Shown here: piece after piece, positions 1 to 61,190 of the stretch
Layout: each line of letters starts with the position of its first letter
Numbering within the stretch: position 1 is the stretch's first letter
Origin: an uncultured Acidobacteriota bacterium
GTDB taxonomy: Bacteria; Acidobacteriota; Thermoanaerobaculia; UBA5066; Gp7-AA6
Direction: 5' to 3'
DNA: 64,000 nucleotides
Assembly (NCBI GenBank): GCA_963733955.1
Contig: CAVTEW010000001.1
Coordinates: 328,005-392,004 of the forward strand
Translations under genes and position numbers: made by a program
Notes under the pieces: model-generated
What the model saw: only the letters and a program-made list of their open reading frames with translations
Database searches by the model: none
Told to the model about the DNA's origin: nothing

Positions 1-3000
1 CTTCCAGCCGCCGAGCGTCGCCAAGTCGTTCACGCCGACGGTCATTGGAGCGGGGGGGATCTCCAAGCTGGCGATCGCCCTGTCCAACGGAAACGCCTCC
101 GACGCCACGCTGAACGCCGACTTCGTCGACACGCTGCCGGGACCCGGCCTGGCGATCGCGAACCCGCCCAACCTGACCCTGAGCGCCAATTGCACCGCGG
201 GCAAAGTCGTCGCCGCGGCCGGCGGCACGACGGTGACCTATCAGAGCGGGGGAGTCCTGAAGGGCAACGGCGGCTGCACGATCCAGGTCGACGTCACGTC
301 CGGCACGGTTCGGGTCTACACGAACACGATCGCCGTGGGCGCGGTCCAGACGACGGTGGGAAACAACGTGGTCTCGGCTTCGGCCAACCTGCAGGTGCTG
401 GCGCTGCCGACGGTGGGGAAGGCGTTCTCTCCGATCTCGATTCCCCTCGGATCGAGCTCGACCCTGACCCTGACCCTGGGCAACACGAACGCGTCGGCCC
501 TGACCGTGAACGCGGATTTCGTCGACACGCTGCCGGCCAATCTCGTCCTGGGCACGCCGGCGACCGTCGGCGGCACCTGCGCGGCGGCCAACGTCGTGGC
601 CGCGGCCGGCGGGCCGTCGGTCACGTACAAGAGCGGCGCGACGATCCCGGCGGGAGGCTGCACGATCACCGTCCCGGTCACGTCGGGCCTGGGCGGCACC
701 TACGTGAACACGATTCTCGCGGGCGCGCTCAGCACGACGATCGGCGGCAACCCGGCCGGCGCCTCGGCCACGCTCGACATCCTCGAAGCGGATCTCTCCG
801 TCACGAAGACCGACGGCGTCGCCACGGTCGTTCCGGGAACGGCGACCACCTACACGATCGTCGTGTCCAACGCCGGACCGAGCCCGGTCGCCAACGCGCC
901 GGTCTCCGATCCGCTTCCGGCGGGCATCGGCTCGATGACCTGGACCTGCGCCGCCTCCGCGGGCTCCTCCTGCGGAGCCGCGAGCGGCAGCGGATCGATC
1001 GCCTCGACGGTCTCGCTCCTGCCCGGCGGATCGGCGACCTACGTCGTGCTCGCCAACGTCCTGCCGGCGGCGCTCGGAACGGTCGCGAACACGGCGACGG
1101 TCGCCGCGCCGGCGGGCGTTCCCGATCCCAATCCGGCCAACAACTCGGCCACCGACACGGACAATCTGACTCCGCAGGCGGATCTGCAGGTCGTCAAGGC
1201 CGGTCCGGCCGCCGTCGTGCCGGGTCAGAACATCTCTTACACGATCACGGCCACCAACGCCGGCCCGTCGACCGCGACCACCGTGAGCCTGACCGACCTC
1301 CTTGCGCCGGGCACGACCTTCGTCTCGCTCGCCACGCCGGGAGGCTGGGCCTGTTTGACGCCTCCGGTCGGCGGGACGGGCTCGGTGTCCTGCTCCACCG
1401 CGTCCTTCGCGCCGCCGAGCCCGGCCTCGTTCACTCTCGTGGTCAACCTGGCGTCGTCGGTCTCCGCGGGCACCTCCGTCTCCAACACCGCGACGATCAC
1501 GTCGGCGACGCCCGATCCGAACCCGGGCGACAATGCGAGCACCACGACGGGCACCGCCGCGCCGTCGGCCGACCTCGCGATCGTCAAGACCGGCCCGGCC
1601 ACCGCGGTACCGGGCGGACCCAACCTCGTCTTCACCACGGTCGTGACGAACAACGGTCCCTCCGACGCCCAGGGGGTCTCCGTCGCCGATCCGACTCCGG
1701 CCAACCTCGTCTTCGTCTCCAACGCCGGCGACTGCACCAGCGCGTTCCCGTGCGTCCTGGGCGCCCTGCCCGCCGGCGCCACGCGCAACATCACGACCAC
1801 GTTCCAGATCCCCTCGGCCTATCCCGCGGGAACGCCGATCGACAACACGGCCACGGTGTCCTCCACGACTCCGGATCCGGTCCCGGGCAACAACGCCTCG
1901 ACCGCGACGGTCCTCGTGCCGACCGGCGTGGCCGACGTCGCCGTCGCCAAGACCGTCGACAATCCCGCTCCCACCGTCGGCTCCAACGTCACGTTCACGG
2001 TGACGGCGTCGGATCTGGGCCCCAGCGACGCGACCGGCGTCGAGGTGACCGACGTGCTCCCGTCGGGACTGACGTTTGTCTCGGCGGCGCCTTCGCAGGG
2101 GTCCTTCGCGCCGGCGACGGGCGTGTGGACCGTGGGCGGGATCGCCGCGGGATCGTCGCAGACGATTCTGATCACGGCCACGGTCACCCAGCCGGGCGTC
2201 ATCGTCAACACCGCCACCAAGACGGCCGGGAACGAGACCGATCCCGACTCGTCCAACAACTCCGGCTCCGCGGTCGTCAGCGGGCCTCCGGCCGTCGCCG
2301 ACATCCAGGTCCAGAAGACCGTGGACGTGCCGGCGCCCGCGGTCGGCGCGAACGTGACGTTCACGATCACCGTCCACAACGCGGGACCGTCGCCGGCGAC
2401 CAACGTGCAGGTGACCGATCTTCTGCCGGCCGGGCTGACCTTCGTGTCCGCGCTTCCCTCCGTGGGCTCCTACGACTCGGTCACCGGCATCTGGTCGATC
2501 GGCGCGATGGCCAACGGGTCGACCGTCACTCTCGGAATCACCGCGAACGTGCCGGGGGCGGGAACGTTCGTCAACACGGCTCAGAAGACGGGCGAGACCG
2601 AGCTCGATCCCAACACCGGCAACGATCAGGCCAGCGCGGTCGTCGTGGCCGGCGGCGGAGGCGGCGCGCTCGCCGACCTCTCTATCCAGAAGACCGATTC
2701 GCCCGATCCCGTCTTCGCCGGACAGACCCTGACCTACACGCTGCTCGTGACCAACCACGGCCCCGACGGCGCCACCGCGGTCACGGTGACCGATCCGCTG
2801 CCCGCCGCGGCGACGCTCGCCTCCGCCTCCGCGAGCCAGGGCGGCTGCGGTGGCACGACGACGGTGGTCTGCACGCTCGGCGGCCTGGCCGCGGGCAACA
2901 GCGCGACGGTGTCCCTGGTGGTGACCGTGTCGGCGGCCGGAGCGCCCGCGATCGTCAACACGGCGACCGTCGCCGCGACGGAGACCGATCCCAATCCGAC

Positions 3001-4588
3001 CGACAACACGGCGACCGCGACGACCGGGGTGACGCCCGTCGCGGACGTGGCCGTCTCCAAGACCGTCTCCAATCCGGCGCCGCTGGTCTCCCAGACGTTC
3101 ACGTTCACCGTGACCGTCTCCAACAACGGCCCCTCCACGGCGACCGGCGTGGCGGTGACCGACGTCCTTCCGGCCAACCTCACGTTTGTCGGCGCGGCGC
3201 CGACACTGGGAGCCTACGCGCCCGGCACGGGAATCTGGACCGTGGGCACGCTGGCCAACGGGCAGATCGAAACCCTGGTGATCACGGTCCTGGCCGCGGC
3301 GCCCGGCGCTTTCACCAACACCGCGGTCAAGACGGGCGAGGTCGAGCTCGATCCCAATCCCGCCAACGACTCCGCGAGCGTCGGAGGCGGCGTCGCCGTC
3401 GTGGCCGACCTGACGATCGTCAAGACGCACGCGCCGGCGACCTTCCTGCGCGGCGCGTCGGGAACCTTCACCTTGACCGTCTCCAACGTGGGGACCGGGC
3501 CGACGACCTCTCCGGTGACCGTCACCGACGGCCTGCCCGCCGGGTTGACGGCGACGGCGGCGTCGGGCACGGGCTGGGGCTGCGTCGTGGGCGCGGCGGT
3601 GGTCTGCGCGCGGTCCGACGTTCTGGCGGCGGGCGCCTCCTGGCCGCCGATCTCCGTGACCGCTTCGGTCGCGCAGTCGGCCGCGGCGAACGTGTCCAAC
3701 ACCGCGACGGTGTCGGGAGGCGGGGACATCGACCCCGCCAACGACTCGTCTACCGACGTCGTTCCGGTCGGCTCGCAGGCCGACCTCGCGCTGGTAAAGA
3801 CCGGTCCGGCCAACGCCATCCCCGGAACCAACATCGTGTACACGCTCGTCGTGACCAACAACGGCCCGTCCGACGCGCTGGGCGTCGTGGTCAGCGACCC
3901 GACCCCGCCCAACCTGACGTTCGTGTCCAACGGCGGCGCCTGCGCGACGGCCTTCCCCTGCAGCCTCGGCACGATCGCCTCGGGCGGCTCGGCCACCATC
4001 ACCGCGACGTTCGCCATCCCGGCCGGGTACACCACGCCGAGCCCGATCGTGAACAGCGCCTCGGTGACCGGCGCCACTCCCGATCCGACGCCGGCCAACA
4101 ACGCGTCGAGCGCGTCGACCGCGGTCTCCGCGGACCTGGAAGCGGTGAAGACGTCGAGCACGCCGACGATCCTGCTGGGGATTCCCTTCAGCTATCAGAT
4201 TGTCGTGACCAACCACGGGCCGTCCGACGCGACCGGCGTGACGCTCACCGACCCGCTGCCGGCCCAGGTCACGTTCCAGTCGGCGACGGCGACGCAGGGC
4301 GCGTGCTCGGGAACGACCACCGTGACCTGCGCGCTGGGAACGCTCGCCAACGGAGCGTCCGCCACCGTGGTGATCACCGTGGTGCCTCCGACGACCGCCG
4401 CTCCCGGCCCGGTCGCCAACACGGCCATGGTCGCGGCCAACGAGTCCGATCCGGACCCGACCAACAACTCCAGCACCGCCACCGCCGTGCTCGGAAGCCC
4501 GGCCATCCCGACGCTTTCGCAGTGGGCGCTGGCCGGCCTCGCGCTCGCGCTGGCCGCGGCGGGCGTCTGGGCTTCGAGAAGGCCGTAG
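1..4588 (+). CDS. Giant repetitive surface protein made of DUF11-type repeats with a C-terminal IPTL-CTERM sorting signal. 5'-partial: the reading frame is open from window position 2.
   Basis: Frame-2 translation runs from nt 2 and is built of ~120-aa repeats (ADLxxxKT...VTNxGPSxA...DPxPxNN). It ends in IPTLSQWALAGLALALAAAGVWASRRP, i.e. IPTL motif plus hydrophobic helix plus basic tail. Stop at 4586-4588. Confidence 0.8.
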   Translation, partial: FQPPSVAKSFTPTVIGAGGISKLAIALSNGNASDATLNADFVDTLPGPGLAIANPPNLTLSANCTAGKVVAAAGGTTVTYQSGGVLKGNGGCTIQVDVTSGTVRVYTNTIAVGAVQTTVGNNVVSASANLQVLALPTVGKAFSPISIPLGSSSTLTLTLGNTNASALTVNADFVDTLPANLVLGTPATVGGTCAAANVVAAAGGPSVTYKSGATIPAGGCTITVPVTSGLGGTYVNTILAGALSTTIGGNPAGASATLDILEADLSVTKTDGVATVVPGTATTYTIVVSNAGPSPVANAPVSDPLPAGIGSMTWTCAASAGSSCGAASGSGSIASTVSLLPGGSATYVVLANVLPAALGTVANTATVAAPAGVPDPNPANNSATDTDNLTPQADLQVVKAGPAAVVPGQNISYTITATNAGPSTATTVSLTDLLAPGTTFVSLATPGGWACLTPPVGGTGSVSCSTASFAPPSPASFTLVVNLASSVSAGTSVSNTATITSATPDPNPGDNASTTTGTAAPSADLAIVKTGPATAVPGGPNLVFTTVVTNNGPSDAQGVSVADPTPANLVFVSNAGDCTSAFPCVLGALPAGATRNITTTFQIPSAYPAGTPIDNTATVSSTTPDPVPGNNASTATVLVPTGVADVAVAKTVDNPAPTVGSNVTFTVTASDLGPSDATGVEVTDVLPSGLTFVSAAPSQGSFAPATGVWTVGGIAAGSSQTILITATVTQPGVIVNTATKTAGNETDPDSSNNSGSAVVSGPPAVADIQVQKTVDVPAPAVGANVTFTITVHNAGPSPATNVQVTDLLPAGLTFVSALPSVGSYDSVTGIWSIGAMANGSTVTLGITANVPGAGTFVNTAQKTGETELDPNTGNDQASAVVVAGGGGGALADLSIQKTDSPDPVFAGQTLTYTLLVTNHGPDGATAVTVTDPLPAAATLASASASQGGCGGTTTVVCTLGGLAAGNSATVSLVVTVSAAGAPAIVNTATVAATETDPNPTDNTATATTGVTPVADVAVSKTVSNPAPLVSQTFTFTVTVSNNGPSTATGVAVTDVLPANLTFVGAAPTLGAYAPGTGIWTVGTLANGQIETLVITVLAAAPGAFTNTAVKTGEVELDPNPANDSASVGGGVAVVADLTIVKTHAPATFLRGASGTFTLTVSNVGTGPTTSPVTVTDGLPAGLTATAASGTGWGCVVGAAVVCARSDVLAAGASWPPISVTASVAQSAAANVSNTATVSGGGDIDPANDSSTDVVPVGSQADLALVKTGPANAIPGTNIVYTLVVTNNGPSDALGVVVSDPTPPNLTFVSNGGACATAFPCSLGTIASGGSATITATFAIPAGYTTPSPIVNSASVTGATPDPTPANNASSASTAVSADLEAVKTSSTPTILLGIPFSYQIVVTNHGPSDATGVTLTDPLPAQVTFQSATATQGACSGTTTVTCALGTLANGASATVVITVVPPTTAAPGPVANTAMVAANESDPDPTNNSSTATAVLGSPAIPTLSQWALAGLALALAAAGVWASRRP

Positions 4589-12369: not shown

Positions 12370-13053
12370 GTGACTACAATGAGTCCAATGGCCGGCCGGA
12401 CGTCCGCAGCCTTGTTCTTTGTCGCTCTCATGGGCTGCGGCGAAGCACGTGCCTTGACGCTCTACCGAGTCGAGCTCAAGGGCGGCGGCGTCGTTTTTGC
12501 CGAGAGCAAGCCGGAAGCCGAGGGAGCGACCCTCGTGTTTCGCTCATCTCCCCAGGGCATTTTGGTCGCCTTGCGGGCCTCGGGCGTCGCGAGAGTCGTT
12601 CCCATCGACAGTCTGGACAAGGCGCCGCTCGATCTTGGCGGCGCCGTGGTGCGGAGTCCGGCTTTTACGGGAGGAGCCGCGCCGCCCCCAGTGCCTCTCG
12701 AAAGCACCGCGCCGACCGCCCCGCCGCCGGCTCCGCGACGCTATGCGCCGGGAGATGATCAACCGGGAAATCGCGTCGCTTTTCCCGTCTCCCGCGATGA
12801 CCTCCTCCCCGGCAACTATCGGCCCTATCCGGCCGGCCCGGGCGGCCAAACGGCGCCGCTGCCCCTGCTGGCCGACGGAGCCGCCACGCCGAAAGCTGGG
12901 TTACTGGCCGAGCCTCCACACGCGATCGTCGTGGAGGACCCGCCCTGCACCCTCAACAGGAGCGTGTCTCCGCCTGGCCTCGCTTTCGCCGAGTATCCGC
13001 GCGTGGACGACCAGACGCCGAAGGCTGCGGCGAAACTCGACGTCCCTTTCTGA
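12370..13053 (+). CDS. Hypothetical lipoprotein.
   Basis: Signal peptide plus lipobox (FFVALMGCGEA). No recognisable domain. Confidence 0.45.
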   Translation: MTTMSPMAGRTSAALFFVALMGCGEARALTLYRVELKGGGVVFAESKPEAEGATLVFRSSPQGILVALRASGVARVVPIDSLDKAPLDLGGAVVRSPAFTGGAAPPPVPLESTAPTAPPPAPRRYAPGDDQPGNRVAFPVSRDDLLPGNYRPYPAGPGGQTAPLPLLADGAATPKAGLLAEPPHAIVVEDPPCTLNRSVSPPGLAFAEYPRVDDQTPKAAAKLDVPF

Positions 13054-13132
13054 CGGAGGGTTGCGCGGTCGCTTTTTCGAAGCGGTCGAATGTCTCTTTG
13101 CTTCCGGGAGGCCAAGGCGTCAGAATCTGGAC

Positions 13133-14452
13133 ATGAGGGTCCACCGCATCCGACAGTCTCTTGCGTTCGTGCTCCTGACCGCGTCTCTGTCCGGCGTGGC
13201 CCGTGCCGCTCTGCCGTTCGTCGAGGATGACTACGCCAAGGCGATCGCGGCCGCCCGCGGCCGTCACGTTCCGATCTTCCTCGAGGCCTGGGCGCCCTGG
13301 TGACACACGTGCCGCTCGATGCGGGCTTTTGTCTTCACCGACAAGAAGCTCGAGCGGCGCGCCGGACAGTTCGTCTGGCTCTCCATCAACACCGAAAAGA
13401 AGGACAACGCTCCGGTCCTGGCGAAGTTCCCCGTCGAGGCCTGGCCGTCCTTCTTCGTGATCGATCCGCAATCGGACAAGGTGCTCGTGCGCTGGGTCGG
13501 CGGAGCGACGGCGGTTCAGGTCGGCAAGATCCTCGACGACGGGCGCTCCGCGGCGGGCGGCCGGCAACGCGGCGTCGACGAGATCCTCGCGCGCGCCGAT
13601 CGCCTCTACGGCGCCGGCAAGAACGCCGAAGCGGCCCGCGAGTACCGGGCTGCGCTGTCCGCGGCGCCGGCCGGCTGGCCGCACTACGCCCGCGCGACCG
13701 AGTCGCTGCTCTTCGCGCTCGACGTGCTTCGCGAATCCAGGCCCTGCGCGGAGACGGCCCGGGACGCCTTCCGCAAGCTCGCCCGGACGTCTTCGGCCGC
13801 CAACGTCGCCAGCCTCGGCCTGACCTGCGCGGCCCGCATCGACGCCTCGGATCCCGCGCGGCCGCAGCTGCTCGCCGCGCTGGCCGACGACGCGCGCGCC
13901 GTGATCGCGGCGCCTCCGGCCGACACCGCCGCGGACGACGTGTCTTCGGTCTACGAGTCGCTGGCCGACGAGCGGGAGGACGCTAAGGACGAAGAGGGAC
14001 GCCGCAAGGCGCTCGCGGCCTGGGCCGCGTACCTGGAGAAGCAGGCCGCGGCGGCGGGGACTCCGGCCGCGCGGATGGTCTTCGACTCGCACCGCGTGAG
14101 CGCCTACCTCGAGCTCGGCGAGCCCGAGCGGGCCATCCCGATGCTGGAAGCCTCGCAGCGGGACGCGCCCGACGACTACAATCCGCCCGCGCGTCTGGCC
14201 CTGGCCTACCGGGCCATGCGCCGCTGGGATGACGCGCTCGCCGCGTCCGACCGCGCGCTGGCGCGGGCCTACGGGCCGCGCAAGATCGGGATCCTGACCG
14301 CGCGCGCGGAGATCTACGCCGGCAAGGGGGACGCCGCCGGAGCCCGCAGGACGCTCCAGGAGGCCGTGGCGTTCGCCGAGAGCCTTCCGGAGGGACAGCG
14401 CTCGGAGAGGACGATCGCGGGACTCAAGAAGAAACTCGCGAACGCGAGCTGA
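13133..14452 (+). CDS. Candidate selenoprotein: secreted thioredoxin-fold (Thioredoxin_7/DsbD-gamma-like) domain protein with a TPR-like C-terminal half. In-frame TGA at 13301-13303 is read as Sec in a W-U-H-T-C (UxxC) active site.
   Basis: ATG 13133 gives signal peptide MRVHRIRQSLAFVLLTASLSGVARA. Translation reads ...HVPIFLEAWAPW[TGA]HTCRSMRAFVFTDKKLERRAGQFVWLSINTEKKDNAPVLAKFPVEAWPSFFVIDPQSDKVLVRWVGG, a complete thioredoxin fold. The track ORFs 12497..13303 and 13319..14452 share one frame and are separated only by this TGA. A hairpin starts 8 nt downstream. Confidence 0.65.
13311..13358 (+). promoter_or_regulatory. Candidate bacterial SECIS hairpin downstream of the in-frame UGA of the thioredoxin-like gene.
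   Basis: gccgctcga (13311-13319) is the perfect reverse complement of tcgagcggc (13350-13358). With the outer G-U pair and further G-C pairs the stem reaches ~12 bp. The intervening 30 nt contain GGGC and a further small cuuc/gaag stem. Confidence 0.45.
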
Positions 14453-15114: not shown

Positions 15115-15858
15115 TCACGCCGCCGGGAGAAACTCGGACAGGACCGGCGCAGGGCCGGGTTGGGAGAAGAGCGCCAGCGCGGCGCGCACGACCGAGGCCT
15201 GGAGCGGCGCGTCGTCGGGGCGCCCCAGGGGATAGCCCAGCGGATACGGGACGGACAACGCGCGGGGAACCCCGACCCTCCGGGTGATCTCCGGGAGCAT
15301 CGTCACCGAGGTCGTGGCCACGCCGCGCCGCTCGACCTCCGCCGCGATCAGACCGACGGTCTGGTGGCACATCGGTCACACCGGGACGAGCAAGACCGCG
15401 TCCGCGCCGTCCTGGACGAGGCGATCGGCGATCCCAGGAGCCGTCTCGGCGACGAACCGGCCCGGAGCGGTGACCGAGCCCATGACCGAGAAGGCACGCG
15501 GCGAGAGCGAGCCGATCTCCCCGCGGCCGGCCATCTCGCGCAGGCGGTCCAGCGGAAAAGCGAGGTTGCGATCCTGCTCGAAGCCGGCGTGGTCGAAGGC
15601 GTCCGACCTTTGATCGATGCGCAGGCGCGACACGTCCGCGTCGGAAGGAATCTCGCGGCTGGAGAAGTCTCCGCCCCGCACCGTGAGGTCGAAGGGCGCC
15701 TGCTCGGGCAGGGAGACGCCGCCGGTCGTGATCAGCGCGACGCGCGATCGGTTCAGCGCCTTGCGGGGAGCCGCCCAGGGGATCGGATCGACGCGGCGGA
15801 ACCGGTACCCCAGGAGGAAGAGCCGTTCCTTGAGCGAAAGATCCGAGAACGAAGCCAT
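15115..15858 (-). CDS. Candidate selenoprotein of the glycine/sarcosine/betaine/proline reductase component B (GRDB/PrdB-like) family. In-frame TGA at 15376-15378 is read as Sec in a U-P-M-C (UxxC) motif.
   Basis: Track ORFs 15376..15858 and 15115..15372 are in the same frame, separated only by TGA then CCG. Joined they read ...RLVQDGADAVLLVPV[U]PMCHQTVGLIAAEVERRGVATTSV. This has the pattern of the GrdB/PrdB Sec region (DAVILTST-U-GTC...) and PrdB-like size (~247 aa). A hairpin CAGACC-GUC-GGUCUG begins 12 nt after the UGA. Confidence 0.65.
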
Positions 15859-20554: not shown

Positions 20555-20588
20555 TCGTCACTGGTCACTGGTCACTGGTCACTCGTCA
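20555..20588. repeat. Heptanucleotide tandem repeat (TCACTGG), about 4.5 units, immediately upstream of glpK.
   Basis: Sequence cactggtcactggtcactggtcactcgtcactg. Confidence 0.75.
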
Positions 20589-20595
20589 CTGAATC

Positions 20596-22101
20596 ATGCG
20601 TGACTACATCGCGGCCATCGACCAGGGGACCACCGGGACGCGCTGCATCCTGTTCGACCGCGAGGGGCGCCCGGCCGCCTCCGCGTACCGGGAGCACCGG
20701 CAGATTCTTCCGCAGCCCGGCTGGGTGGAGCACGATGCGTCGGAGATCTGGGATCGGACCGGACAGGTCGTCGCCGAGGCTCTGCGCGCGGTCCCTCGGG
20801 GCCGGGTGCTCGCCGTCGGCGTGACCAATCAGCGCGAAACGGTCGTGGCCTGGGACCGCCGCGACGGGCGTCCGCTGTTCCACGCCATCGTCTGGCAGGA
20901 CACCCGGACGGCGCAGCGCTGCCGGCTCTGGATCGAGCAGGGGTGGGAAGAGGACGTCCGGGAGCGCACCGGACTGCCGATCTCGACCTACTTCTCGGCC
21001 AGCAAGATCGGATGGCTCCTCGAACACGTCGAGGGACTCCGCGATCTCGCCGCCGCGGGGCACGCCTGCGTCGGCACGATGGACGCCTGGATCATCTGGA
21101 ACCTGACCGGAGGGGCGCGCGGGGGAGCCCTGGTGACGGACCCGACCAACGCGTCCCGGACTCTGCTCTGCAATCTCGCCGGGCTCTCGTGGGATCCCGT
21201 CCTGCTCGATCGGTTCGGAGTGTCCGAGAGCCTGCTTCCGGCGATCCGGCCGTCGGTGGCCGGGGAGCCCTACGGGCAGACATCCCGGGAAGGGCCGTTC
21301 GGCGCGGCGATTCCCGTCTGCGGCGATCTCGGCGACCAGCAGGCTGCGCTCTTCGGACAGGCCTGCTTCGCCGCGGGCGCCGCCAAGAACACCTACGGCA
21401 CGGGATCGTTTCTTCTGCAGCACACCGGCGAGATCCCGCCCAGGAGCGTCTCCGGGCTCCTGGCCACGGCGGCCGGCGCGACCGGCGGGGAACGCGCCTA
21501 CGCGTTGGAAGGCGCCGTGGCGGTCACAGGCTCCGCGGTGCAGTGGCTCCGGGACGGCCTGGGGCTCATCGCCAGCGCCGCGGAGACCGAGGCCGTCGCC
21601 GGAACCGTTCCCGACGCCGGAGGGGTGTACTTCGTTCCCGCATTCTCGGGTCTCTTCGCGCCGTACTGGGACATGCGCGCCCGCGGCGCCATCGTGGGCC
21701 TGACCCGCTTCGCGTCCAGGGCCCACCTGGTCCGGGCCACGCTCGAGGCCATTTGTTTCCAGACCCGGGAAGTGGCCGACGCGATGGCCGCCGACTGCGG
21801 ACGGCCTCTGGACGTCCTCAAGGTGGACGGGGGCGCGAGCGTCAACGACCTGCTCATGCAGATGCAGGCCGACATCCTCGGCGCGCCGGTTCTCCGACCC
21901 GTGGTTCGAGAGACGACCGCGCTCGGCGCCGCCTTCGCCGCCGGGTTGGGCGCCGGAGTCTTCGCTACCCCGCGCGAGCTGACGCGCCTGTGGAGGGCGG
22001 AGCGCACGTTCGAGCCCTCCTGGGACGACGGCCGCCGCGAGCAGGCCCTGCGCGGATGGAAACGCGCGGTCGAACGGTCGCGCGACTGGTTGGAAGAGTG
22101 A
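20596..22101 (+). CDS. glpK: Glycerol kinase.
   Basis: MRDYIAAIDQGTTGTRCILFD... has the FGGY N-terminal and C-terminal domains and the GTGSF and GGAS motifs. Length ~500 aa. Confidence 0.9.
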   Translation: MRDYIAAIDQGTTGTRCILFDREGRPAASAYREHRQILPQPGWVEHDASEIWDRTGQVVAEALRAVPRGRVLAVGVTNQRETVVAWDRRDGRPLFHAIVWQDTRTAQRCRLWIEQGWEEDVRERTGLPISTYFSASKIGWLLEHVEGLRDLAAAGHACVGTMDAWIIWNLTGGARGGALVTDPTNASRTLLCNLAGLSWDPVLLDRFGVSESLLPAIRPSVAGEPYGQTSREGPFGAAIPVCGDLGDQQAALFGQACFAAGAAKNTYGTGSFLLQHTGEIPPRSVSGLLATAAGATGGERAYALEGAVAVTGSAVQWLRDGLGLIASAAETEAVAGTVPDAGGVYFVPAFSGLFAPYWDMRARGAIVGLTRFASRAHLVRATLEAICFQTREVADAMAADCGRPLDVLKVDGGASVNDLLMQMQADILGAPVLRPVVRETTALGAAFAAGLGAGVFATPRELTRLWRAERTFEPSWDDGRREQALRGWKRAVERSRDWLEE

Positions 22102-28935: not shown

Positions 28936-30351
28936 TCAGTGGAGATGCGCGGAGGGGTTTCCGGGCGGCAGGGCCGCGAAGGCGGGATGGTCGGGTTTGC
29001 CGCGCGTCAGGATGATCGCGTAGAGAAACGGCGCGAAGCTCGTGCCCTTCCGGCCGTTGATCGCGACGATGGGCGTTCCGTCGGAATCGAAGTGGGCCGC
29101 CGCGGCGATGTCCTGCTCGAGCGCCTCTCGGACCCTGGGGGAGGCGAAGCAGGAGTCCATCTGGTCCCGGGACAGGAACCGCGAGGCGATCGACATCGCC
29201 GCGTTTCCCGTCAGGCCCTCCTGCTTCTCGAAGAGAGCCGCGGCGAGGTCCGGCTCCTTGCCGGTCGGCTCGGCGCAGATCCGCAGCCTGGCGGCGACGC
29301 AGCGCACGTCGTCCCCCTCCTTGCCCGGCTGCAGGAGGGAATTACAGCGGCCGTCCAGCGGGAACTGCCGGGCGTCGACGCTGTAGCTGCCGGGCGGGAC
29401 GCTCTCGCGCAGCGTGTGGAGCGTCTGGTTCAGGCTCGCGCAGTGCTCGCAGAGGATGTCGGTGAACTCGGTGATCCGCACCGGCGCCATCTCCGCGCCG
29501 ACGAGCGCGCGCGGCGGAGGCAGGGGCTGCGGAGCCGACGCGCGGTAGATCGCCAGCGAGTCCGCGAGGGTCTGTTTCATCTGGGGGTCCAGAGACTGGA
29601 CGAGGTCGGTGAGGGCCTTGTCCCGGTCGGGGTACCCCGTCCCGGTGGAGGCTCCGTCCGCGGGGGCCTGCGAATCGGAGGAATCGGAAGGCCGGGCGGC
29701 CGTCTCCACGGCGCGGCGTCCGGCCTCTTCGGTGGACCTGGGCGTCGAGAGACCCGGATAGAGGAGGAGCAGAAACGCGGCGCCGGCGACGACGCCGGCC
29801 AGGACCGCCGCCTGCGGCCAGGGCCCGAGCCCGGCAGGACGCCAGGGTCGAAGGGCGACGACGGCGTAGGCCGCGACGAGAACGTCCATTCCGAGGCAGC
29901 CGAGGCAGACCGCGCCGGCGGCGAAGCTCGCCGCGAGCATCACCGCGGCGACGACAACGCCCGCGAGCGCGGTGAGCCGGACGGCCGAAAGGATCCGCAC
30001 CGCGGGCCTTGCCTGCGCGGCGCGCAGGAGTCCGGCCAGCGCGAGCGCGAAGGCCGCCGCGCTCCACACCAGCCCCCAGCCGGCGACGGGAAGCCCGGTG
30101 AGCCGCTGGATCGCGGACGCGAACGCGCCGTTCCAGACCGCCGAGCAATCGAGCTTGCCTTCGGCCGCGCAGAACGACCCTGCGCCCGAGCGCAGCAGCA
30201 CGAGCTCCATCCAGAGAAACACCGACCAGAGAGCGCAAAGGGCGCCCAGGACCACGAGCTTCGTCCAGGCCGAGGCGTCGATCGTGGCGACGGCTTCGGC
30301 TGAGCGGGCGTCCACCTCCGGTTGTTTCTTTTTCTTCTCCAAGCGGCTCAT
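28936..30351 (-). CDS. VKOR (vitamin K epoxide reductase) membrane domain fused to a periplasmic DsbA-like thioredoxin domain; a disulfide-bond-forming protein.
   Basis: N-terminal half has 4-5 TM segments with a CxxC in a helix (AVCLGCLGMD), typical of VKOR. C-terminal half has a thioredoxin-type CxxC (ITEFTDILCEHCASL) and DsbA-like length. Confidence 0.7.
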   Translation of the reverse strand: MSRLEKKKKQPEVDARSAEAVATIDASAWTKLVVLGALCALWSVFLWMELVLLRSGAGSFCAAEGKLDCSAVWNGAFASAIQRLTGLPVAGWGLVWSAAAFALALAGLLRAAQARPAVRILSAVRLTALAGVVVAAVMLAASFAAGAVCLGCLGMDVLVAAYAVVALRPWRPAGLGPWPQAAVLAGVVAGAAFLLLLYPGLSTPRSTEEAGRRAVETAARPSDSSDSQAPADGASTGTGYPDRDKALTDLVQSLDPQMKQTLADSLAIYRASAPQPLPPPRALVGAEMAPVRITEFTDILCEHCASLNQTLHTLRESVPPGSYSVDARQFPLDGRCNSLLQPGKEGDDVRCVAARLRICAEPTGKEPDLAAALFEKQEGLTGNAAMSIASRFLSRDQMDSCFASPRVREALEQDIAAAAHFDSDGTPIVAINGRKGTSFAPFLYAIILTRGKPDHPAFAALPPGNPSAHLH

Positions 30352-37317: not shown

Positions 37318-38290
37318 GCAATCCTCCGCTCCAAAGCACTCCGCGGCGGTTCCGGAGCCGGCGGCCGATGTTTCGGCTCGGCGATCGGCAGCGGAAATGC
37401 CAGCGCGCGGCCGAGGCATGGGCTTCTTCGCTCGCACGCTGTCCCACAGCGCCACGATGGGATTCACCGTGATGGGCTTCACGCTCCAGATCCCCATCGG
37501 CACGGCCGTGGGCCGATGGCTGAGCCGGATGATCGCGCTGCCCCAGTTGAAGAAATTGGTCGACGCGCGGATTCCCTGGACGCCGCTTTGCAAGCCGCTC
37601 TCGGAGGCCACCGTCGTCCTGATCAGCACAGGCGGGGTGCACTTGAAGAGCGATCCGCCGTTTCACCTGAACAGCGACTCGTCCTTCCGCGTCATCCCCG
37701 GGGACGCGAAACAGGGCGATCTGGCCATCTCCCACCAGGCCTACGACCGCACGGACGCGTGGAAGGACATCAACCTCGTCTTTCCGATCGAGAGGCTGCG
37801 CGAGCTCGAGAGGGAGCGAGTGCTCGGACGGCTCGCCGCCGAGCACTACGGCTTCGGCCTGATGGGCAGCGCCCGGAAGCTGATGCCGTCGATCCGGGAG
37901 GTCGCGCGGCGCGTCCGGGCGTCGGGCGTCGATCTGGCTCTGCTGGTGCCCGCTTGACCCATCTGCACGCGGTCCGTCGGACTGCTTGCCAGAGAGATCG
38001 AGGCCCAGGGCGTCACGACGGTCGCGCTGGCCCTGGTGAAAGAAGTCGCGGTGGCCGCTCGCGCGCCGCGCTTCCTCTACGTGCACTGGCCCTTCGGCCA
38101 CGCCCTGGGCGAGCCCGGCAACGTCACCCAGCAACGCACCGTGCTTCACGACATGCTCTCGATGGCTGTCGCCGCGCCGCGTCCCGGCCTGGTCCTCGAC
38201 CTGCCGTACCGCTGGCGGCGCGAGACGTACGCGCCGAAAATCGACTGGAAGACTCCGAGCAAGGTGGTCGCCGCCGCGTTGTCGTCCTGA
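37318..38290 (+). CDS. Candidate selenoprotein, second GRDB/PrdB-like family member. In-frame TGA at 37955-37957 is read as Sec in a U-P-I-C (UxxC) motif.
   Basis: GAGGAG RBS 7 nt before ATG 37318. Translation reads ...VRASGVDLALLVPA[TGA]PICTRSVGLLAREIEAQGVTTVALALVKEVAVAARAPRFLYVHWPFGH... and continues in frame to 38290, merging track ORFs 36797..37957 and 38036..38290. It is a paralog (~35% identity) of 15115..15858 with the Sec at the homologous position. Hairpin GCGGUCC-GUC-GGACUGC begins 12 nt after the UGA. Confidence 0.65.
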
Positions 38291-55100: not shown

Positions 55101-56471
55101 TCAAAGAGCTCCCAGCCGCTCCCCGATCAGCCGGTCGGCACGGGCGAAGTCGACCTCGTCGAGGCTCGCCGCCCGGCTCGTCAACGCGTCGAGGATTTCC
55201 TCCTGAATCACTCCCCGCCGCTTCGCCTCGGCATAGGGAATGGTGTGGAACATCACCATCGAATAGCGGGGGATGAAGCGGCCGGGGTGCCTCTCTTCGA
55301 GGCGAAAGGAAAGGTCCTTCTTCAACTGAAACCTCGGCTCCCGGACGGTCGACCGCATCTCCACGTAGTTCTCCAGGGCCATGTCGGCGATCGCGTCGGT
55401 ATTGGGCCGGCGGCGCGCTTCGAATTCTGCGAAGACCTCGTTCCACGGCCGATTCGGATCCGCCAGACATCGATCGAAGGCGCTGCAATCTTCGAACGCC
55501 GCGTTCATGCCCTGCCCGTGAAAGGGAACGATCGCGTGCGCGGCATCTCCCAGCACGAGGGCGTGATCCTCGAACGACCACGGCGCGCAGCGGATCGTCT
55601 CCAGGTGGCCGGTGGGATTTCCGAAGAAGTCCTCGAGGAGGCCGGGCATGAGCGCGATCGCGTCGCCAAACCGGCGTTCGAAGAGCGCGAGAGCGGCCTC
55701 GGGAGTCGTCAGGGCCTGAAAACTTTCTTCTCCCCGATTCGGCAGAAACAGGGTCGCCGTGAAGCTGCCGTCGGTGTTGGGAAGCGCGATCAGCATGTAT
55801 TCGCCTCTCGGCCAGATGTGCAACGCGTTCTTCTCCATCCGAAACTGCCCGCCTGGCGCCGCGGGGATCGAGAGCTCCTTGTAGCCGTGGCCGAGCGGCT
55901 CCTCGTTGAGGCGTCCGCCCGTCCGTTCCAGAATTGCGGCGCGAACCGCCGAGGCGCTTCCATCCGTCCCGATGAGGACGTCGTAGGGCGTCGTTTGCGG
56001 CTCGGGACTCTCACCGGCTAAGAAGCGCACCAGGCGGTGCGCGAAGTCGACGCCGCAGACCGTCTCTCCGAAGCGGATCGAGACTCGGCCGGTCGAGTCC
56101 GCGGCATCCAGAAGCAGCGTGTTCAGGCCCGCACGCGAGACCGAGTAGATGACTTCATGCGGCTTGTTTCCGTACGGAACGAGCTTGAGACGTCCTTCCT
56201 CGTCGTGAAGCATCCTCCCCACCATCGGAATGAGCTCGGCGCGGACGCTCTCCATCACGCCGACCTCTTCGAGCGCCGCGATGCCGCGGTTGGCGAGCGC
56301 GAGATTGATGGAGCGCCCGGCTGATGTCGCCGCCGCCGGCTTCCGGGGATCGGGGCGGCGCTCGAGGAGCGTCACGCGGTGCCCGCGCCGAGCCAGGAAG
56401 ATCGCCAGGAGCGAGCCGGCGAGACCGGCGCCGACGAGCATGATCCGGGAGGTATCGCGGGGTGTTCTCAC
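55101..56471 (-). CDS. kmo: Kynurenine 3-monooxygenase (FAD-dependent).
   Basis: IMLVGAGLAGSLLAIFLARRGHRVTLLERRPDP is the FAD GxGxxG motif; also RSINLALANRGIAAL, DGSASAVR, GDAAHAIVPFHGQGMNAAFED and the KMO-specific C-terminus FIPRYSMVMFHTIPYAEAKRRGVIQEEIL. Confidence 0.85.
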   Translation of the reverse strand: MRTPRDTSRIMLVGAGLAGSLLAIFLARRGHRVTLLERRPDPRKPAAATSAGRSINLALANRGIAALEEVGVMESVRAELIPMVGRMLHDEEGRLKLVPYGNKPHEVIYSVSRAGLNTLLLDAADSTGRVSIRFGETVCGVDFAHRLVRFLAGESPEPQTTPYDVLIGTDGSASAVRAAILERTGGRLNEEPLGHGYKELSIPAAPGGQFRMEKNALHIWPRGEYMLIALPNTDGSFTATLFLPNRGEESFQALTTPEAALALFERRFGDAIALMPGLLEDFFGNPTGHLETIRCAPWSFEDHALVLGDAAHAIVPFHGQGMNAAFEDCSAFDRCLADPNRPWNEVFAEFEARRRPNTDAIADMALENYVEMRSTVREPRFQLKKDLSFRLEERHPGRFIPRYSMVMFHTIPYAEAKRRGVIQEEILDALTSRAASLDEVDFARADRLIGERLGAL

Positions 56472-56668
56472 AGGGGCGCTCGGAGGCTACACCGAAACGG
56501 AAGCCCCCTCGCCCGTCCGCCTCAGCTCTTCGAGTTGGCGCAGGAACCGGGGTCGAGCTGAAAATCATTTGCCAATTGGTTCCGATGTCCGACTTGGGTC
56601 AGGGGCTCTTCTGCCAATACATGAATTCAGCGTTGACCCCAATTGGGCCACGGTTAGTCAACAACCTC

Positions 56669-57748
56669 TCAGGACCGGGGAGGCACGACGGTTGATCGAA
56701 CCGGCCTCGGCACACGCCGGATCGGAGCCCTGGCCGGGATGGGAAAATCGAGGCGACCGATCTTCCCTGCCGCAGTCGGGCTGAACGAGAGGTTGCCGGC
56801 AGTCTCGGTGAACCAGACGGCGCCCTCCGGCCCGATCGCGATGCCGTATGGCTGGCTGCCCGGCGTCGGAATGGGAAACTCGGTGATCTCGCCCGAAGGG
56901 GTGATCCGTCCGATCTTGTTGCCTTGCATCTCGGTGAACCACAGTGCGCCCGATTCTGCGGTGATGGCGCCGGGCATGCTGTCGGGCGTGGGAATGCGGA
57001 ACTCGGTAATCACGCCCGCGACTGTGATCCGACCGATTCGATTCGCGGCTGTCTCCGTGAACCACAGGTGGCCGTCCGGGCCGACGGTGATCCTCAGAGG
57101 CTCGCTCTGGGGCGGAACGGGAAACTCGGTCAGGTGTCCGTCGGTCGTGATGCGTCCGATGCGGTCGGCATTGCTCTCCGTGAACCAGAGCGCGCCATCC
57201 GGTCCGGCCGCGATCCCCCATGGATGGATCTGATAAGACACTCCGGTCAGATCAAAGAGCTCGAAGCGTCCGGCAGCAGTCATCCGACCGACCTGACCGC
57301 CATCCCACTCCGTGAACCAGAGGTTTCCATCGGAACCGACCGCGAGTTCCAGCGGCCCGTCCTCCTCGAAGAACGCCCCGGCAGGCCCGAACTCCGTGAT
57401 CTGTCCGTCCAACGTGATCCGTCCGATCTTGTCCGCGAAGCCTTCGGTGAACCAGATAGCCCCATCCGGCCCGAGCGTGATCCCTCCCGGCTCGCACTTT
57501 GACGTCGGGACGGGATACTCCGAGAGAGTCCCGGACGTCGTAATTCGCCCGATCCGGTTACCTCTCAGCTCCGTAAACCACATCGCACCGTCCGGACCGG
57601 CTGTCAGGTTCCAGGGAACGCTGTGCGGATCAGGGACGACATATTCAGTGATCGTCTGGGCGAGAGTGTTTCCCGGGAAGCAGAAGACGAGGGCCAGAGT
57701 CAGCGTTACGAGCAGGCTGGTTGGCAGGAGAGACGCTTCTTTGCTCAC
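56669..57748 (-). CDS. Secreted virginiamycin-B-lyase (Vgb)-like beta-propeller protein.
   Basis: Signal peptide followed by 7 repeats of the ...GP(D)GA(L/I)WFTE..N(R/K)IGRIT..G...E(F/Y)..P hallmark of the Vgb/streptogramin lyase family. Confidence 0.7.
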   Translation of the reverse strand: MSKEASLLPTSLLVTLTLALVFCFPGNTLAQTITEYVVPDPHSVPWNLTAGPDGAMWFTELRGNRIGRITTSGTLSEYPVPTSKCEPGGITLGPDGAIWFTEGFADKIGRITLDGQITEFGPAGAFFEEDGPLELAVGSDGNLWFTEWDGGQVGRMTAAGRFELFDLTGVSYQIHPWGIAAGPDGALWFTESNADRIGRITTDGHLTEFPVPPQSEPLRITVGPDGHLWFTETAANRIGRITVAGVITEFRIPTPDSMPGAITAESGALWFTEMQGNKIGRITPSGEITEFPIPTPGSQPYGIAIGPEGAVWFTETAGNLSFSPTAAGKIGRLDFPIPARAPIRRVPRPVRSTVVPPRS

Positions 57749-57921
57749 GAGACCGCGGCGAGTCTATCAATGCCGGCGCCGCCCGCGCCGAGTGCGTGGA
57801 AGCGGGCGGGGGCAATACTCGTCCCTACGAAGACCAAGACGACGAGATCCCTCGCTATCGCTCGAGATGACAGCGTCAGAGTAGCCGCTGGGGGTGACGG
57901 CGTGAGAGGGGGGCGCGGCTC

Positions 57922-59220
57922 TCACAGAGCGCTCCGAAGAGTCGTGACGAAGCGGTGGACCTCCTCGTACCGGTTGTAGAGAGGGACGGGCGCCACCCGA
58001 ATCACGTCCGGCTCGCGCCAGTCGCAGGTGACGCCGGATGCTTCGAGTTTTTCAAGGACGGCTCTTCCCGAGCCGTTTGAATGCGCCTTCACGCGTAACG
58101 AGAGCTGGCATCCCCTCCGGCGCGGGTCTTGCGGCGTGAGGATCTCGACCGAATCGCCGATTTCCCGGGCAAGCAGCCATTCGAGGTAGCCCGTGAGACG
58201 GAGCGATTTCTTCCGCAGCGGCTCCATTCCCCCCGCTTCCGTGAAAACGTCGAGCGAAGCGCGAATGGCCGCGAGCGAGAGGATCGGAGGGTTCGAGAGC
58301 TGCCATCCCTCCGCGCCGGGGATCGGTCGAAAGCCGGGCTCCATCCGGAATCGAGACGCCTTGTCGTGGCCCCACCAGCCGGCCAGACGCGGCAGATCGC
58401 GCGACGCGCCGTAGCCGTGCCGCTCGTGGACGAAGCAGCCGCCCACCGAGCCGGGGCCCGAGTTCAGGTACTTGTAGGTGCACCAGACGGCGAAATCCAC
58501 GTCCCAGTCGTGGAGGGAGAGAACCAGGTTGCCCGCCGCGTGAGCCAGATCAAAGCCGACCACGCACCCCTTCGCGTGGGCGAGCCGCGTGATCGTCGCG
58601 ATGTCGAACGCCTGGCCCGTGTAGTACTGGACGCCGGGAAGGAGGACCAGGGCGATCGAATCGCCGTCGCAGTCGAGGACTTCGGCGACGCGCGCGGCAT
58701 CGAGGGTAAGTTCTCCCTCGCGCGGCCGCAGGCGAACGAGCGCTTCGGCCGGGTCGAATCCGTGGAATCTGGCCTGAGACTCGACCGCATAGTCGTCCGA
58801 GGGAAACGCGTGCTCCTCGAGAAGAATCCGGTGCCGCTCCGGAGTGGGCCGGTAGAAGCTCGCCATCATCAGGTGGAGGTTGACGGTGAGCGAGTTCATT
58901 GTCACGACTTCGCTCGGGACTGCGCCCACCAGATTCGCCATCGGCCCGGCGAGGAGCTCGTGGTAAGGCATCCACGGGTTCGCCCCCGAAAAATGCGCCT
59001 TGACGGCGAGCCGCTTCCACTTCTCGAGCTCTTGCTCGACGTACGTTGGAGTCCTCTTCGGAAGGAGCCCCAGCGAATTGCCCGCGAAATAGATTTCTTC
59101 CTCGGCGCTTTCGCTTCTGGGAATGTGAAATTCGTCCCGGAACCGGGCGAGCGAGTCGTCGCGGTCCAGGGCCGCCGCGAAATCGCGTCCGGGCTTGAAA
59201 GACCCGCTCGGCTCGCTCAC
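57922..59220 (-). CDS. kynU: Kynureninase (PLP-dependent).
   Basis: Full-length match to kynureninase architecture (YFAGNSLGLLPK..., FDLAHAAGNLVLSLHDWDVDFAVWCTYKYLNSGPG... with the PLP lysine in the CTYKYLN context). GTG start overlaps the ACMSD stop (GTGA). Confidence 0.85.
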   Translation of the reverse strand: MSEPSGSFKPGRDFAAALDRDDSLARFRDEFHIPRSESAEEEIYFAGNSLGLLPKRTPTYVEQELEKWKRLAVKAHFSGANPWMPYHELLAGPMANLVGAVPSEVVTMNSLTVNLHLMMASFYRPTPERHRILLEEHAFPSDDYAVESQARFHGFDPAEALVRLRPREGELTLDAARVAEVLDCDGDSIALVLLPGVQYYTGQAFDIATITRLAHAKGCVVGFDLAHAAGNLVLSLHDWDVDFAVWCTYKYLNSGPGSVGGCFVHERHGYGASRDLPRLAGWWGHDKASRFRMEPGFRPIPGAEGWQLSNPPILSLAAIRASLDVFTEAGGMEPLRKKSLRLTGYLEWLLAREIGDSVEILTPQDPRRRGCQLSLRVKAHSNGSGRAVLEKLEASGVTCDWREPDVIRVAPVPLYNRYEEVHRFVTTLRSAL

Positions 59221-60245
59221 CGTTTGCCCGACTCTCCACCGAAGCGTCCGGCGGGAAGGCCGAGCCATTCGAGCGCCGTGCCATGCAGCAGCCGCGCGCG
59301 GGTGGCCTCCGGGAATCCGCACGAATCGATCAGCTCCCCCGCGCGAGTCTCGCCGAGGGGGTAGGGATAGTCGCTTCCGAGAGCGATCCGATCGGCGCCC
59401 ATCAAATCCACGAGGTAGCGCAGCATCAGCGGGTCGTGCACGAGCGAGTCGAGATAGATCCGCCGGAGGTATTCACGAGGGGACACGTCGTTGGAGACGG
59501 CGCACAGATCGGGCCGCGCTTCAAAACCTCGGACGATCCGCCCGATCGTCGCCGGAAACGCGCCGCCGCCGTGCGCGAAGGCGATCCGCAGGGACGGGAG
59601 CCTCTCGAGCACTCCGCCGAAGATGAGCGAGCAGATCGCGAGCGAAGTCTCCGCGGGCATTCCCACGAGCCAGGGGAGCCAGTAACGCGTCATCCGATCC
59701 CGGCCGGCCATCTCCCAGGGGTGGACGAAGACGGCCGCCCCGAGCGTCGCGGCCGCCTCGAAGATCGGAAAGATCTCCGGGCTGTCGAGGTTCGCCCCGT
59801 TGACGTTCGAGCCGATCTCGACGCCCGGGAGTCCGAGGTCCCGCACGCAGCGCTCCAGCTCGCGAATCGCGAGGTCGGGGCTCTGCATCGGGATCGTTCC
59901 GAGCCCGGAGAACCGCGCCGGGTGCGCGGCCACGACCCCGGCGATGTGGTCGTTCAAGCGCCTCGCGAGCTCGAGCGCGCGATCCGGCTCCGCCCAGTAG
60001 CTGAACAGGACCGGAACGGTCGAGAGAACCTGCACGTCGATGCCCGCCGCGTCGCACTCGGCCAACCGCGTCTCGACGTCCCAGTTGTTGCTTTCGATCT
60101 CGCGGAAGACAGAACCCTGGACGATCATCCGCGCGCGGCCGGGCGCGTAATGGTCGAGTTGAACGAACCGTTCGCCTCCCGGCGCCTTGCGGAAGTCGGG
60201 CAGCGTCTCGGGAAGAATGTGAGTGTGGACGTCGATCTTCAGCAA
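59217..60245 (-). CDS. 2-amino-3-carboxymuconate-6-semialdehyde decarboxylase (amidohydrolase_2 family).
   Basis: MLKIDVHTHILPETLPDF..., QVLSTVPVLFSYWAEP, VFVHPWEMAGRDRMTRYWLPWLVGMPAETSLAICSLIFGGVLERLPSLRIAFAHGGGAFP and ALVHDPLMLRYL are near-collinear with human/Pseudomonas ACMSD. Confidence 0.85.
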   Translation of the reverse strand: MLKIDVHTHILPETLPDFRKAPGGERFVQLDHYAPGRARMIVQGSVFREIESNNWDVETRLAECDAAGIDVQVLSTVPVLFSYWAEPDRALELARRLNDHIAGVVAAHPARFSGLGTIPMQSPDLAIRELERCVRDLGLPGVEIGSNVNGANLDSPEIFPIFEAAATLGAAVFVHPWEMAGRDRMTRYWLPWLVGMPAETSLAICSLIFGGVLERLPSLRIAFAHGGGAFPATIGRIVRGFEARPDLCAVSNDVSPREYLRRIYLDSLVHDPLMLRYLVDLMGADRIALGSDYPYPLGETRAGELIDSCGFPEATRARLLHGTALEWLGLPAGRFGGESGKR

Positions 60246-60246
60246 G

Positions 60247-60762
60247 TCAGCGGGTCGCCGCGGGCATCACCACCCCACACTTCCTGCAGGTGCGTTTCAT
60301 CTCGTCGGCGAAGAACCGATCGAAGATAGGCGGAAAGTCCGTTTCGACGTTCTGGAGTGTGAAGAACTCTTCGTACAGCAGGGACGTGCAGTGGTCGCAA
60401 TACCACTGGAGCCCGTCTTTCTCGTGCGGGAGCCGCTTGCGTTCGATGACGAGGCCCACGGAATTCGGCATCCGCTGGGGCGAATGCGGAACGCGCGGCG
60501 GAAGGAGAAAGATCTCGCCGGCGTGAATCGGGACGTCCACGACCTTGCCGCCCTGGATCGTCTTGAGGACCATCTCGCCTTCGAGCTGATAGAAGAACTC
60601 GGGTCCCTCGTCGATGTGGTAGTCCTTGCGGTTGTTCGGCCCGCCGACGACCATGACGATGAAATCGTCTTGCTCGAAGACCTTCTTGTTGCCCACCGGC
60701 GGCTTGAGCTCGCTCCGGTGCTCGTCGATCCACCGCTCGAAATTCAGCGCCTTCGATTCCAT
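60247..60762 (-). CDS. 3-hydroxyanthranilate 3,4-dioxygenase (cupin) with a C-terminal rubredoxin-like CxxC...CxxC site.
   Basis: [32 protein letters not shown]..., [14 protein letters not shown] and GLVIERKR are HAAO signatures. C-terminus is WYCDHC...CRKCG. Confidence 0.85.
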
Positions 60763-60788
60763 GGCGTTCCTCTCGTAGTATATGCGTC

Positions 60789-61187: not shown

Positions 61188-61190
61188 AGC

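Follow-up and report, generated by a model that had tools for sequence, protein, structure and literature searches.

The 64-kb stretch of Acidobacteriota DNA analysed here (contig CAVTEW010000001.1; ~70% G+C), which we call the window and to whose positions all coordinates refer, carries on its forward strand a gene that is divided in frame by a single TGA codon and very probably encodes a selenoprotein, composed of an N-terminal thioredoxin (Trx) domain and a C-terminal domain resembling tetratricopeptide repeats (TPR). Two open reading frames (ORFs), 12497..13303 and 13319..14452, lie in the same frame with nothing between them but this TGA and the codons CAC ACG TGC CGC TCG. Translation from ATG 13133 yields MRVHRIRQSLAFVLLTASLSGVARA, then ALPF...FLEAWAPW, the TGA and HTCRSMRAFVFTD..., with no second TGA before the terminal stop; the predicted product around codon 57 reads MRVHRIRQSLAFVLLTASLSGVARA-ALPF...HVPIFLEAWAPW[TGA]HTCRSMRAFVFTDKK..., and coding signal is present on both flanks of the codon. 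A global reassignment of UGA was ruled out, because TGA is the normal stop of 47 of the 66 genes predicted in the window. The upstream gene ends at 13053, and a terminator-like hairpin behind it, identified by pattern match only, marks the 5′ boundary of the transcription unit (Table 1).

Table 1. Coordinates of the Trx-TPR gene, its parts and the two further selenoprotein candidates in the window.
Feature	Position	Strand	Remarks
Terminator-like hairpin	13066..13088	+	Consensus scan: stem of 10 bp, then a T-run; pattern match only
Predicted selenoprotein gene, complete	13133..14452	+	439 codons plus TGA stop (14450..14452); selenocysteine (Sec) = codon 57
Signal-peptide-like N-terminus	13133..13207	+	MRVHRIRQS / LAFVLLTASLSGV / ARA, then A; putative cleavage between ARA and A
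Thioredoxin_7/DsbD-gamma-like domain	13223..13468	+	Pfam match at aa 31-112; fold reaches ~aa 142
UGA probably read as Sec, codon 57	13301..13303	+	N-terminal nucleophilic position of the redox motif; from the Sec/Cys alignment
U-H-T-C redox motif (UxxC)	13301..13312	+	
Candidate SECIS, extended hairpin of ~54 nt	13308..13361	+	12-bp lower stem, internal loop, 7-bp upper stem, loop UUCACC
Pro105 of W-P	13445..13447	+	W104 and P105 invariant in both alignments
All-helical TPR-like solenoid	13571..14440	+	~aa 147-436, ~15 helices; from the P0009 model and Foldseek
Cys205, invariant	13745..13747	+	Start of a TPR-like helix; both alignments
Cys232, invariant	13826..13828	+	Near the end of the next helix; both alignments
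Second selenoprotein candidate, 247-aa GrdB/PrdB-family protein	15115..15858, TGA 15376..15378	-	...DAVLLVPV[TGA]PMCHQTVG...
Third selenoprotein candidate, GrdB/PrdB family	37418..38290, TGA 37955..37957	+	...DLALLVPA[TGA]PICTRSVG...

Codon 57 was read from the DNA at 80 loci, one per species, in GTDB-representative genomes that are nearly all Thermoanaerobaculia or other Acidobacteriota metagenome-assembled genomes (MAGs). It proved to be TGA at 68 loci and TGC or TGT at the other 12, with no other codon or stop at this position. In full-length homologues the TGA is matched by the first Cys of WCHTC; these proteins read EAWAPWCHTCRSM, and the window reads EAWAPW[TGA]HTCRSM at the same place (shared motif EAWAPW[U/C]HTCRSM, U denoting Sec). 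The core W-[U/C]-H-[T/S]-C is invariant in 81 sequences, and H, T, C, R, S and M are all invariant among the Cys forms. On the 5′ side, the 30 codons preceding the TGA are free of stops in every Sec-form locus and encode the conserved peptide P-I/L-F-x-E-A-W-A-P-W. Since this peptide is conserved in frame and the codon is always TGA, TGC or TGT, the locus is neither a pseudogene nor two separate genes, and 68 independent assemblies with the TGA exclude a sequencing error. The original prediction of two ORFs in one frame, parted by a TGA at the site of a nucleophilic Cys, agrees with the coordinates and with the WCHTC alignment; its expectations that orthologues carry Cys at exactly this codon, that they are single genes, and that the TGA is not a read error were likewise borne out.

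The databases present this family in a different form. Approximately 100 of the best 120 entries in a protein search are proteins of 377-385 aa named 'tetratricopeptide repeat protein', which begin at the Met six codons past the TGA, while ~20 homologues are full length (411-471 aa, mostly 437-471 aa) and include the Trx domain. The full-length Cys orthologues align end to end with the 439-codon product. A HMMER scan collected 494 clusters at 50% identity (E <= 1e-30), and ~47 of the best 150 begin exactly at the post-UGA Met. When the sampled family was placed on a neighbour-joining tree and the state of codon 57 was traced by Fitch parsimony, Sec stood at the root and ~5 Sec/Cys switches were required. 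From these sequences, Sec appears to be ancestral in the Trx-TPR family, with several later replacements by Cys after which the hairpin described below decayed. The twelve Cys forms (L016, L020, L022, L026, L027, L029, L031, L032, L034, L035, L036 and L062) fall mainly into one clade with a few isolated members, and a single Sec form, L013, branches in their midst. Three family members, L062, L067 and L077, reside on contigs labelled Eisenbacteria/Eiseniibacteriota or Myxococcaceae, which could reflect horizontal transfer or mis-binning.

Immediately downstream of the TGA, the mRNA is predicted to form an extended hairpin that is probably a non-canonical selenocysteine insertion sequence (SECIS). 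It begins 4 nt past the UGA, its loop begins 30 nt past the UGA, and the arms gccgctcga (13311..13319) and tcgagcggc (13350..13358) belong to the 12-bp lower stem. The minimum free energy (MFE) of this element is -31.9 kcal/mol (z = -3.45), a stability equalled by 1 of 200 shuffled sequences. Over the same codons, Sec forms fold at -30.2 kcal/mol versus -22.8 kcal/mol for Cys forms (p = 2e-6). A consensus of 21 pairs, which was drawn by hand from single-sequence folds before being tested by pair counts and slid controls and is partly fitted to the data, was 82% paired in 61 distinct Sec-form sequences, as compared with 32-55% when the pairing partners were slid and 59% in the Cys forms (p = 5e-7 for Sec versus Cys). 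Changes on both sides of a pair were seen in the Sec-form sequences at pairs 24-48 (GC, CG, AU) and 27-45. Synonymous codon choice in this region is also narrower in Sec than in Cys forms (entropy at Leu+16, 0.22 versus 1.19 bits; at Ala+20, 0.0 versus 0.98 bits; at Asp+13, 0.43 versus 1.0 bits), and a rare AGG Arg codon lies within the hairpin region of 44 of the 69 Sec forms. The published bacterial SECIS (bSECIS) model specifies a loop of 3-9 nt, an upper stem of 4-16 bp, a spacing of 16-37 nt and an MFE <= -7.5 kcal/mol (PMC13188914, Fig. 2); the hairpin has a 6-nt loop, a 7-bp upper stem, a spacing of 30 nt and, as given above, an MFE well within this limit.

A second, smaller hairpin (GAUG/CGUC with loop AGGGCCUU, 18-19 nt past the UGA) fits the bSECIS model and is present in 51-59 of the 69 sequences. 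Because of its instability in the window (-0.5 kcal/mol), its lack of covariation and its incompatibility with the much stronger, covarying hairpin, it was not accepted as the main element. Just 3′ of the main hairpin, at 13361..13375 (columns 61-75 of the alignment past the UGA), the 69 Sec forms show no variation at synonymous sites that do vary in Cys forms, the invariant codons being Ala+20 GCC, Gln+22 CAG and Val+24 GUC. A small CGGA[CAG]UUCG hairpin is predicted around this region in many sequences; the constraint may represent a second SECIS element or something else. In the Cys forms the downstream hairpin is partly decayed (38-81% paired) and looks like a 'fossil SECIS' at differing stages.

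The domain content of the predicted protein was examined with Cys put at codon 57. Pfam Thioredoxin_7 (PF13899) matched aa 31-112, straight across the TGA, with 33.5 bits against a cutoff of 27 and over profile positions 3-83 of 83; the match to Thioredoxin (PF00085) was weaker and borderline (23.7 bits against 23.5). An AlphaFold2 (AF2) model of the Cys orthologue P0009, which is 68% identical, was obtained (predicted local distance difference test, pLDDT, 88; predicted template-modelling score, pTM, 0.82). It places a thioredoxin fold at residues 33-146, in which C-H-T-C lies between a strand (52-57) and a helix (62-71), and has the CxxC-type motif where helix alpha-1 begins, together with a putative cis-Pro loop. 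We take Pro105 to be the proline of that loop. Residues 151-440 of the model form ~15 helices arranged as a TPR-like solenoid, which in Foldseek searches resembled LGN, CTPR and other TPR proteins; the Pfam TPR_12 and TPR_19 models remained below threshold (TPR_12, 28.5 against 30.1). The C-terminal half is thus TPR-like mainly on the strength of the predicted structure. Cys205 and Cys232, which are contributed by adjacent antiparallel helices of the modelled solenoid, may be joined in a structural disulfide, as would fit export, or may constitute a second redox pair.

The N-terminus combines basic residues, a hydrophobic stretch (hydropathy window 2.1 at aa 9-20) and an AxA motif, and has low pLDDT in the model. 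An equivalent N-terminus is found in 78 of 79 related loci, in Sec and Cys forms alike, and this conservation makes it likely that the protein is exported. The signal peptide and the intact thioredoxin fold across the junction, both proposed at the outset from the single sequence, were borne out. The TPR-rich C-terminal half held in part: its helical-repeat structure is seen in the AF2 model, whereas the Pfam TPR scores are sub-threshold.

With respect to Sec decoding, Acidobacteriota are documented Sec users (PMC12013277). In a relative with the TGA form, a Thermoanaerobaculia MAG contig (L063), ARAGORN identified tRNA-SeC(tca) at 20573..20666 on the minus strand, 9.3 kb from the TGA-form Trx-TPR gene. 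This tRNA-Sec, with anticodon UCA, scored 69.6 bits with Rfam RF01852 against a threshold of 47; no sel gene was found beside it in the 580 nt of flank. In the window, Rfam at gathering thresholds gave no matches.

Scanning the window for TGAs flanked by coding signal recovered the Trx-TPR site, two GrdB-like sites and a lower-scoring antisense site that was judged spurious. The TGAs of the two GrdB/PrdB-family genes align with the Cys of PVCPxC in full-length homologues, and the closest homologues of both are cut at 160 aa. Each TGA is followed, 18 nt downstream, by a stem of 6-7 bp (6 bp at 15376..15378) with a GUC triloop, an arrangement that is canonical for a bSECIS. The nearest relative (L001) retains the TGA found in the first of these genes. 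By sequence, this first gene is a divergent short member of the GrdB/PrdB family, scoring below the equivalog cutoffs (PrdB, 133.8 against 300; selenoprotein-B, 62 against 65.45). The gene at 37418..38290 is its paralogue (35% identity) and matches Pfam GRDB at 3e-8.

Taken as a whole, the locus is best explained by one secreted Trx-fold selenoprotein in which UGA-57 is recoded through the downstream hairpin, and we hold this explanation with considerable confidence. Several observations weigh against it, however. No selA, selB, selC or selD was found in the window when predicted proteins were scanned, and ARAGORN reported no tRNA there. Covariation in the hairpin is limited to 5 pairs with changes on both sides, and these counts are inflated by related sequences. 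RNAalifold alone, applied to 69 Sec-form sequences, recovered a consensus of no more than 3 pairs, as the register of the stem differs from clade to clade, and the structure was therefore drawn by hand before testing. The bSECIS model also requires a G within the loop's first two positions (PMC13188914), a consensus applied by bSECISearch and contradicted by the loop UUCACC. The arms named in the original prediction of a bacterial SECIS are present; the hairpin is conserved and decays in Cys forms, and its loop departs from the model in this one respect. The gene context offers no pointer to a pathway: conserved operon partners of the types CcdA/DsbD, VKOR or Msr were not found among the 80 loci, the top neighbour cluster occurring in 17 of them, and since no neighbour is conserved the Trx-TPR gene appears to stand alone. 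Finally, the likeness to CnoX that informs the functional model below is one of architecture and fold, with 13% identity and a global template-modelling (TM) score of 0.21-0.32.

Do these points favour another reading of the TGA? If it were a true stop, the locus would comprise a 56-codon leader ORF and an independent 377-aa cytoplasmic TPR protein initiated at ATG 13319, or a pseudogene. Gene callers and the NCBI/JGI annotation treat the short database entries in this manner, TGA is the main stop codon of the organism, and Met63 is invariant. Met63 is equally invariant in the full-length Cys forms, however, which marks it as structural and not as a translation start. Moreover, the split would cut the Trx fold after strand beta-1 and remove the nucleophile, so that the second half alone would lack an intact Trx fold, as had been argued originally, and the signal peptide would sit on a 56-aa fragment. 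Given that the upstream codons are conserved as protein at every Sec locus, and that the stop is always TGA and never TAA or TAG at the exact Cys position of 12 relatives, we regard genuine termination as extremely unlikely. Stable downstream RNA structures generally promote read-through, and the UGA might be decoded as something other than Sec, either by hairpin-stimulated near-cognate insertion of Trp or Cys or by Sec-tRNA machinery that delivers Cys when selenium is scarce. That no sel genes were found in the window and that the hairpin departs from the loop rule speak for such decoding. Against it, Trp at codon 57 would abolish redox chemistry; the position is a catalytic Cys site at which Cys codons are the only alternative in 80 species, the classic Sec/Cys signature; a TGA-form relative has tRNA-Sec; and the window holds two further UxxC sites, of the GrdB/PrdB type, whose SECIS features are canonical. 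We judge this possibility very unlikely.

A further alternative is that the UGA serves as a selenium-sensing switch, giving full-length enzyme with selenium and a stop after 56 residues without it. Selenium-dependent recoding is a property of every bacterial Sec-UGA, the gene is monocistronic and has no conserved partner, which makes regulation at the UGA itself plausible, and the repeated Sec-to-Cys replacements suggest that lineages differ in their tolerance of selenium dependence. Sequence cannot separate such a switch from ordinary Sec insertion, and the proposal refines the explanation by Sec recoding rather than replacing it; as a reading in its own right we consider it very unlikely indeed.

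Recoding of UGA-57 as Sec under the direction of the hairpin, which is strongly supported, would place the redox centre U-H-T-C at the N-terminal end of helix alpha-1 in a domain of the DsbD-gamma/Thioredoxin_7 type. From thioredoxin and selenoprotein chemistry, the U57 selenolate would be the nucleophile that attacks a substrate disulfide or sulfenate, and Cys60 would resolve the intermediate by way of a selenenylsulfide. A client-binding module could be provided by the fused TPR-like solenoid of 290 aa, such that the protein would act outside the cytoplasm as a counterpart to CnoX/YbbN, the Trx-TPR 'chaperedoxin'. The putative redox partner of the protein, either a reductant of the CcdA/DsbD type or an oxidant of the VKOR/DsbB type, is not encoded adjacent to the gene. 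A role as client-binding reductase or isomerase, which rests on this analogy, is put forward tentatively, and we would sooner doubt than assert it.

CnoX/YbbN, like the Trx-TPR protein, has an N-terminal Trx and a C-terminal TPR domain (PMC8129009, PMC6282202, PMC10998233), and its structures 3qou and 3qdn were the top PDB matches of the P0009 model in Foldseek (E 7.6e-6 and 1.7e-5). By phmmer, the PDB matches were confined to Trx domains, and YbbN was not listed at E <= 0.01. CnoX is cytoplasmic, works with GroEL/DnaK, has ~4 TPR motifs and carries SQHC in E. coli rather than CxxC, whereas the Trx-TPR protein has a signal-peptide-like N-terminus that sets it apart from a cytoplasmic protein, a solenoid of ~7 repeats and a Sec-containing UxxC. 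By architecture, CnoX is a plausible model for a redox centre that cooperates with a client-binding repeat domain. DsbD gamma and related exported Trx proteins (1vrs_D, 3f9u, 2kuc) differ in having Cys instead of Sec and no TPR domain; the Trx-TPR protein, in turn, has neither the membrane (beta) nor the alpha domain of DsbD, and no CcdA is adjacent to its gene.

Inventories of bacterial selenoproteins list several Trx-fold UxxC families, namely Thioredoxin (PF00085), thiol:disulfide interchange protein (PF13098), thiol-disulfide isomerase-like, DsbA-like and DsbG-like proteins (PMC9312934; PMC13188914, Table 1). The Trx-TPR protein resembles them in that Sec replaces the N-terminal nucleophilic Cys of CxxC, Cys-form homologues exist and a coding-region hairpin follows the UGA; several of these families are exported as well. 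It differs from them in its best Pfam match (PF13899, not PF00085 or PF13098), in the H-T dipeptide of WUHTC, in the C-terminal 290-aa TPR-like solenoid, and in a family concentrated in Thermoanaerobaculia whose entries are annotated as truncated TPR proteins. The PF00085 UxxC class in particular is defined by 100-aa cytoplasmic thioredoxins; the Trx-TPR protein, with its UxxC and its borderline PF00085 match, differs from these in carrying a signal peptide and the TPR solenoid. A Thioredoxin_7-TPR UxxC family is listed in neither the 2022 nor the 2026 inventory, the latter of which comprises 119 families. NCBIfam selenoprotein models all scored far below cutoff (TsoB NF045694, 25.2 against 805; VPGUxxT NF041383, 16.2 against 275; PDO_seleno_TRX TIGR02187, 12.3 against 185). 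The Trx7/PDZ selenoprotein (NF041199), a family that the inventories do list, likewise has Sec in a Thioredoxin_7-type domain fused to a protein-binding module, but its motif is CxxU with a C-terminal Sec and its module is PDZ instead of TPR; with 16.1 bits against a cutoff of 300, membership in this family was rejected. In the literature searched, we found no link between Thermoanaerobaculia and selenocysteine, nor a Trx-TPR selenoprotein. Homology-based resources such as BSepDB may already be binning the family under a generic class.

Among the window neighbours of the gene are a hemolysin-III protein, a GrdB-like gene, an FG-GAP protein and MsrA. Farther off, a VKOR-DsbA fusion is encoded at 28936..30351 on the minus strand (Pfam VKOR followed by Thioredoxin_4/DSBA), which indicates that the organism runs an extracytoplasmic oxidative pathway of disulfide formation and provides a context for a periplasmic Trx selenoprotein. 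Elsewhere in the window, a repeat protein of >1500 aa runs off the window start (2..4588, plus strand); its many ...VTNxGPSxA... units and the hydrophobic tail at its C-terminus give it the look of a cell-surface repeat protein. An apparent kynurenine/3-hydroxyanthranilate degradation cluster occupies 55101..63782. Its FAD monooxygenase (55101..56441) was assigned by Pfam, and the kynureninase-like, amidohydrolase, 3-HAO-like cupin, RidA-like and aldehyde-dehydrogenase-like ORFs were recognized by sequence reading only. A beta-propeller of the virginiamycin-B-lyase family lies at 56669..57748.

Conceptually, the finding is incremental, as no kind of bacterial selenoprotein is commoner than the Trx-fold UxxC proteins; its value lies in annotation correction and in what it offers for the study of SECIS evolution. 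The broader proposition, that an uncatalogued family of exported Trx-TPR 'seleno-chaperedoxins' is ancestral and near-universal in Thermoanaerobaculia and has its Sec directed by a hairpin without the canonical loop G, may be correct, although we place it slightly short of an even chance. If it is, a lineage-specific mode of SelB-SECIS recognition would be implied, and the annotation as a truncated TPR protein would be wrong for all Sec-form members of the family. As it stands, the family of 494 clusters is systematically truncated in public databases, with loss of the signal peptide and the catalytic domain, and re-annotation alters the localization and function predicted for a protein that most Thermoanaerobaculia, a class widespread in soil and sediment, possess. 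The 68 Sec and 12 Cys orthologues, with their hairpins decaying after Sec loss, constitute a natural series for SECIS evolution, and the same series lends itself to tests of a SECIS whose loop does not follow the bSECISearch rule. Counting the two GrdB/PrdB-family candidates, three Sec genes within 64 kb suggest that these uncultured Acidobacteriota use selenium beyond what the literature records.

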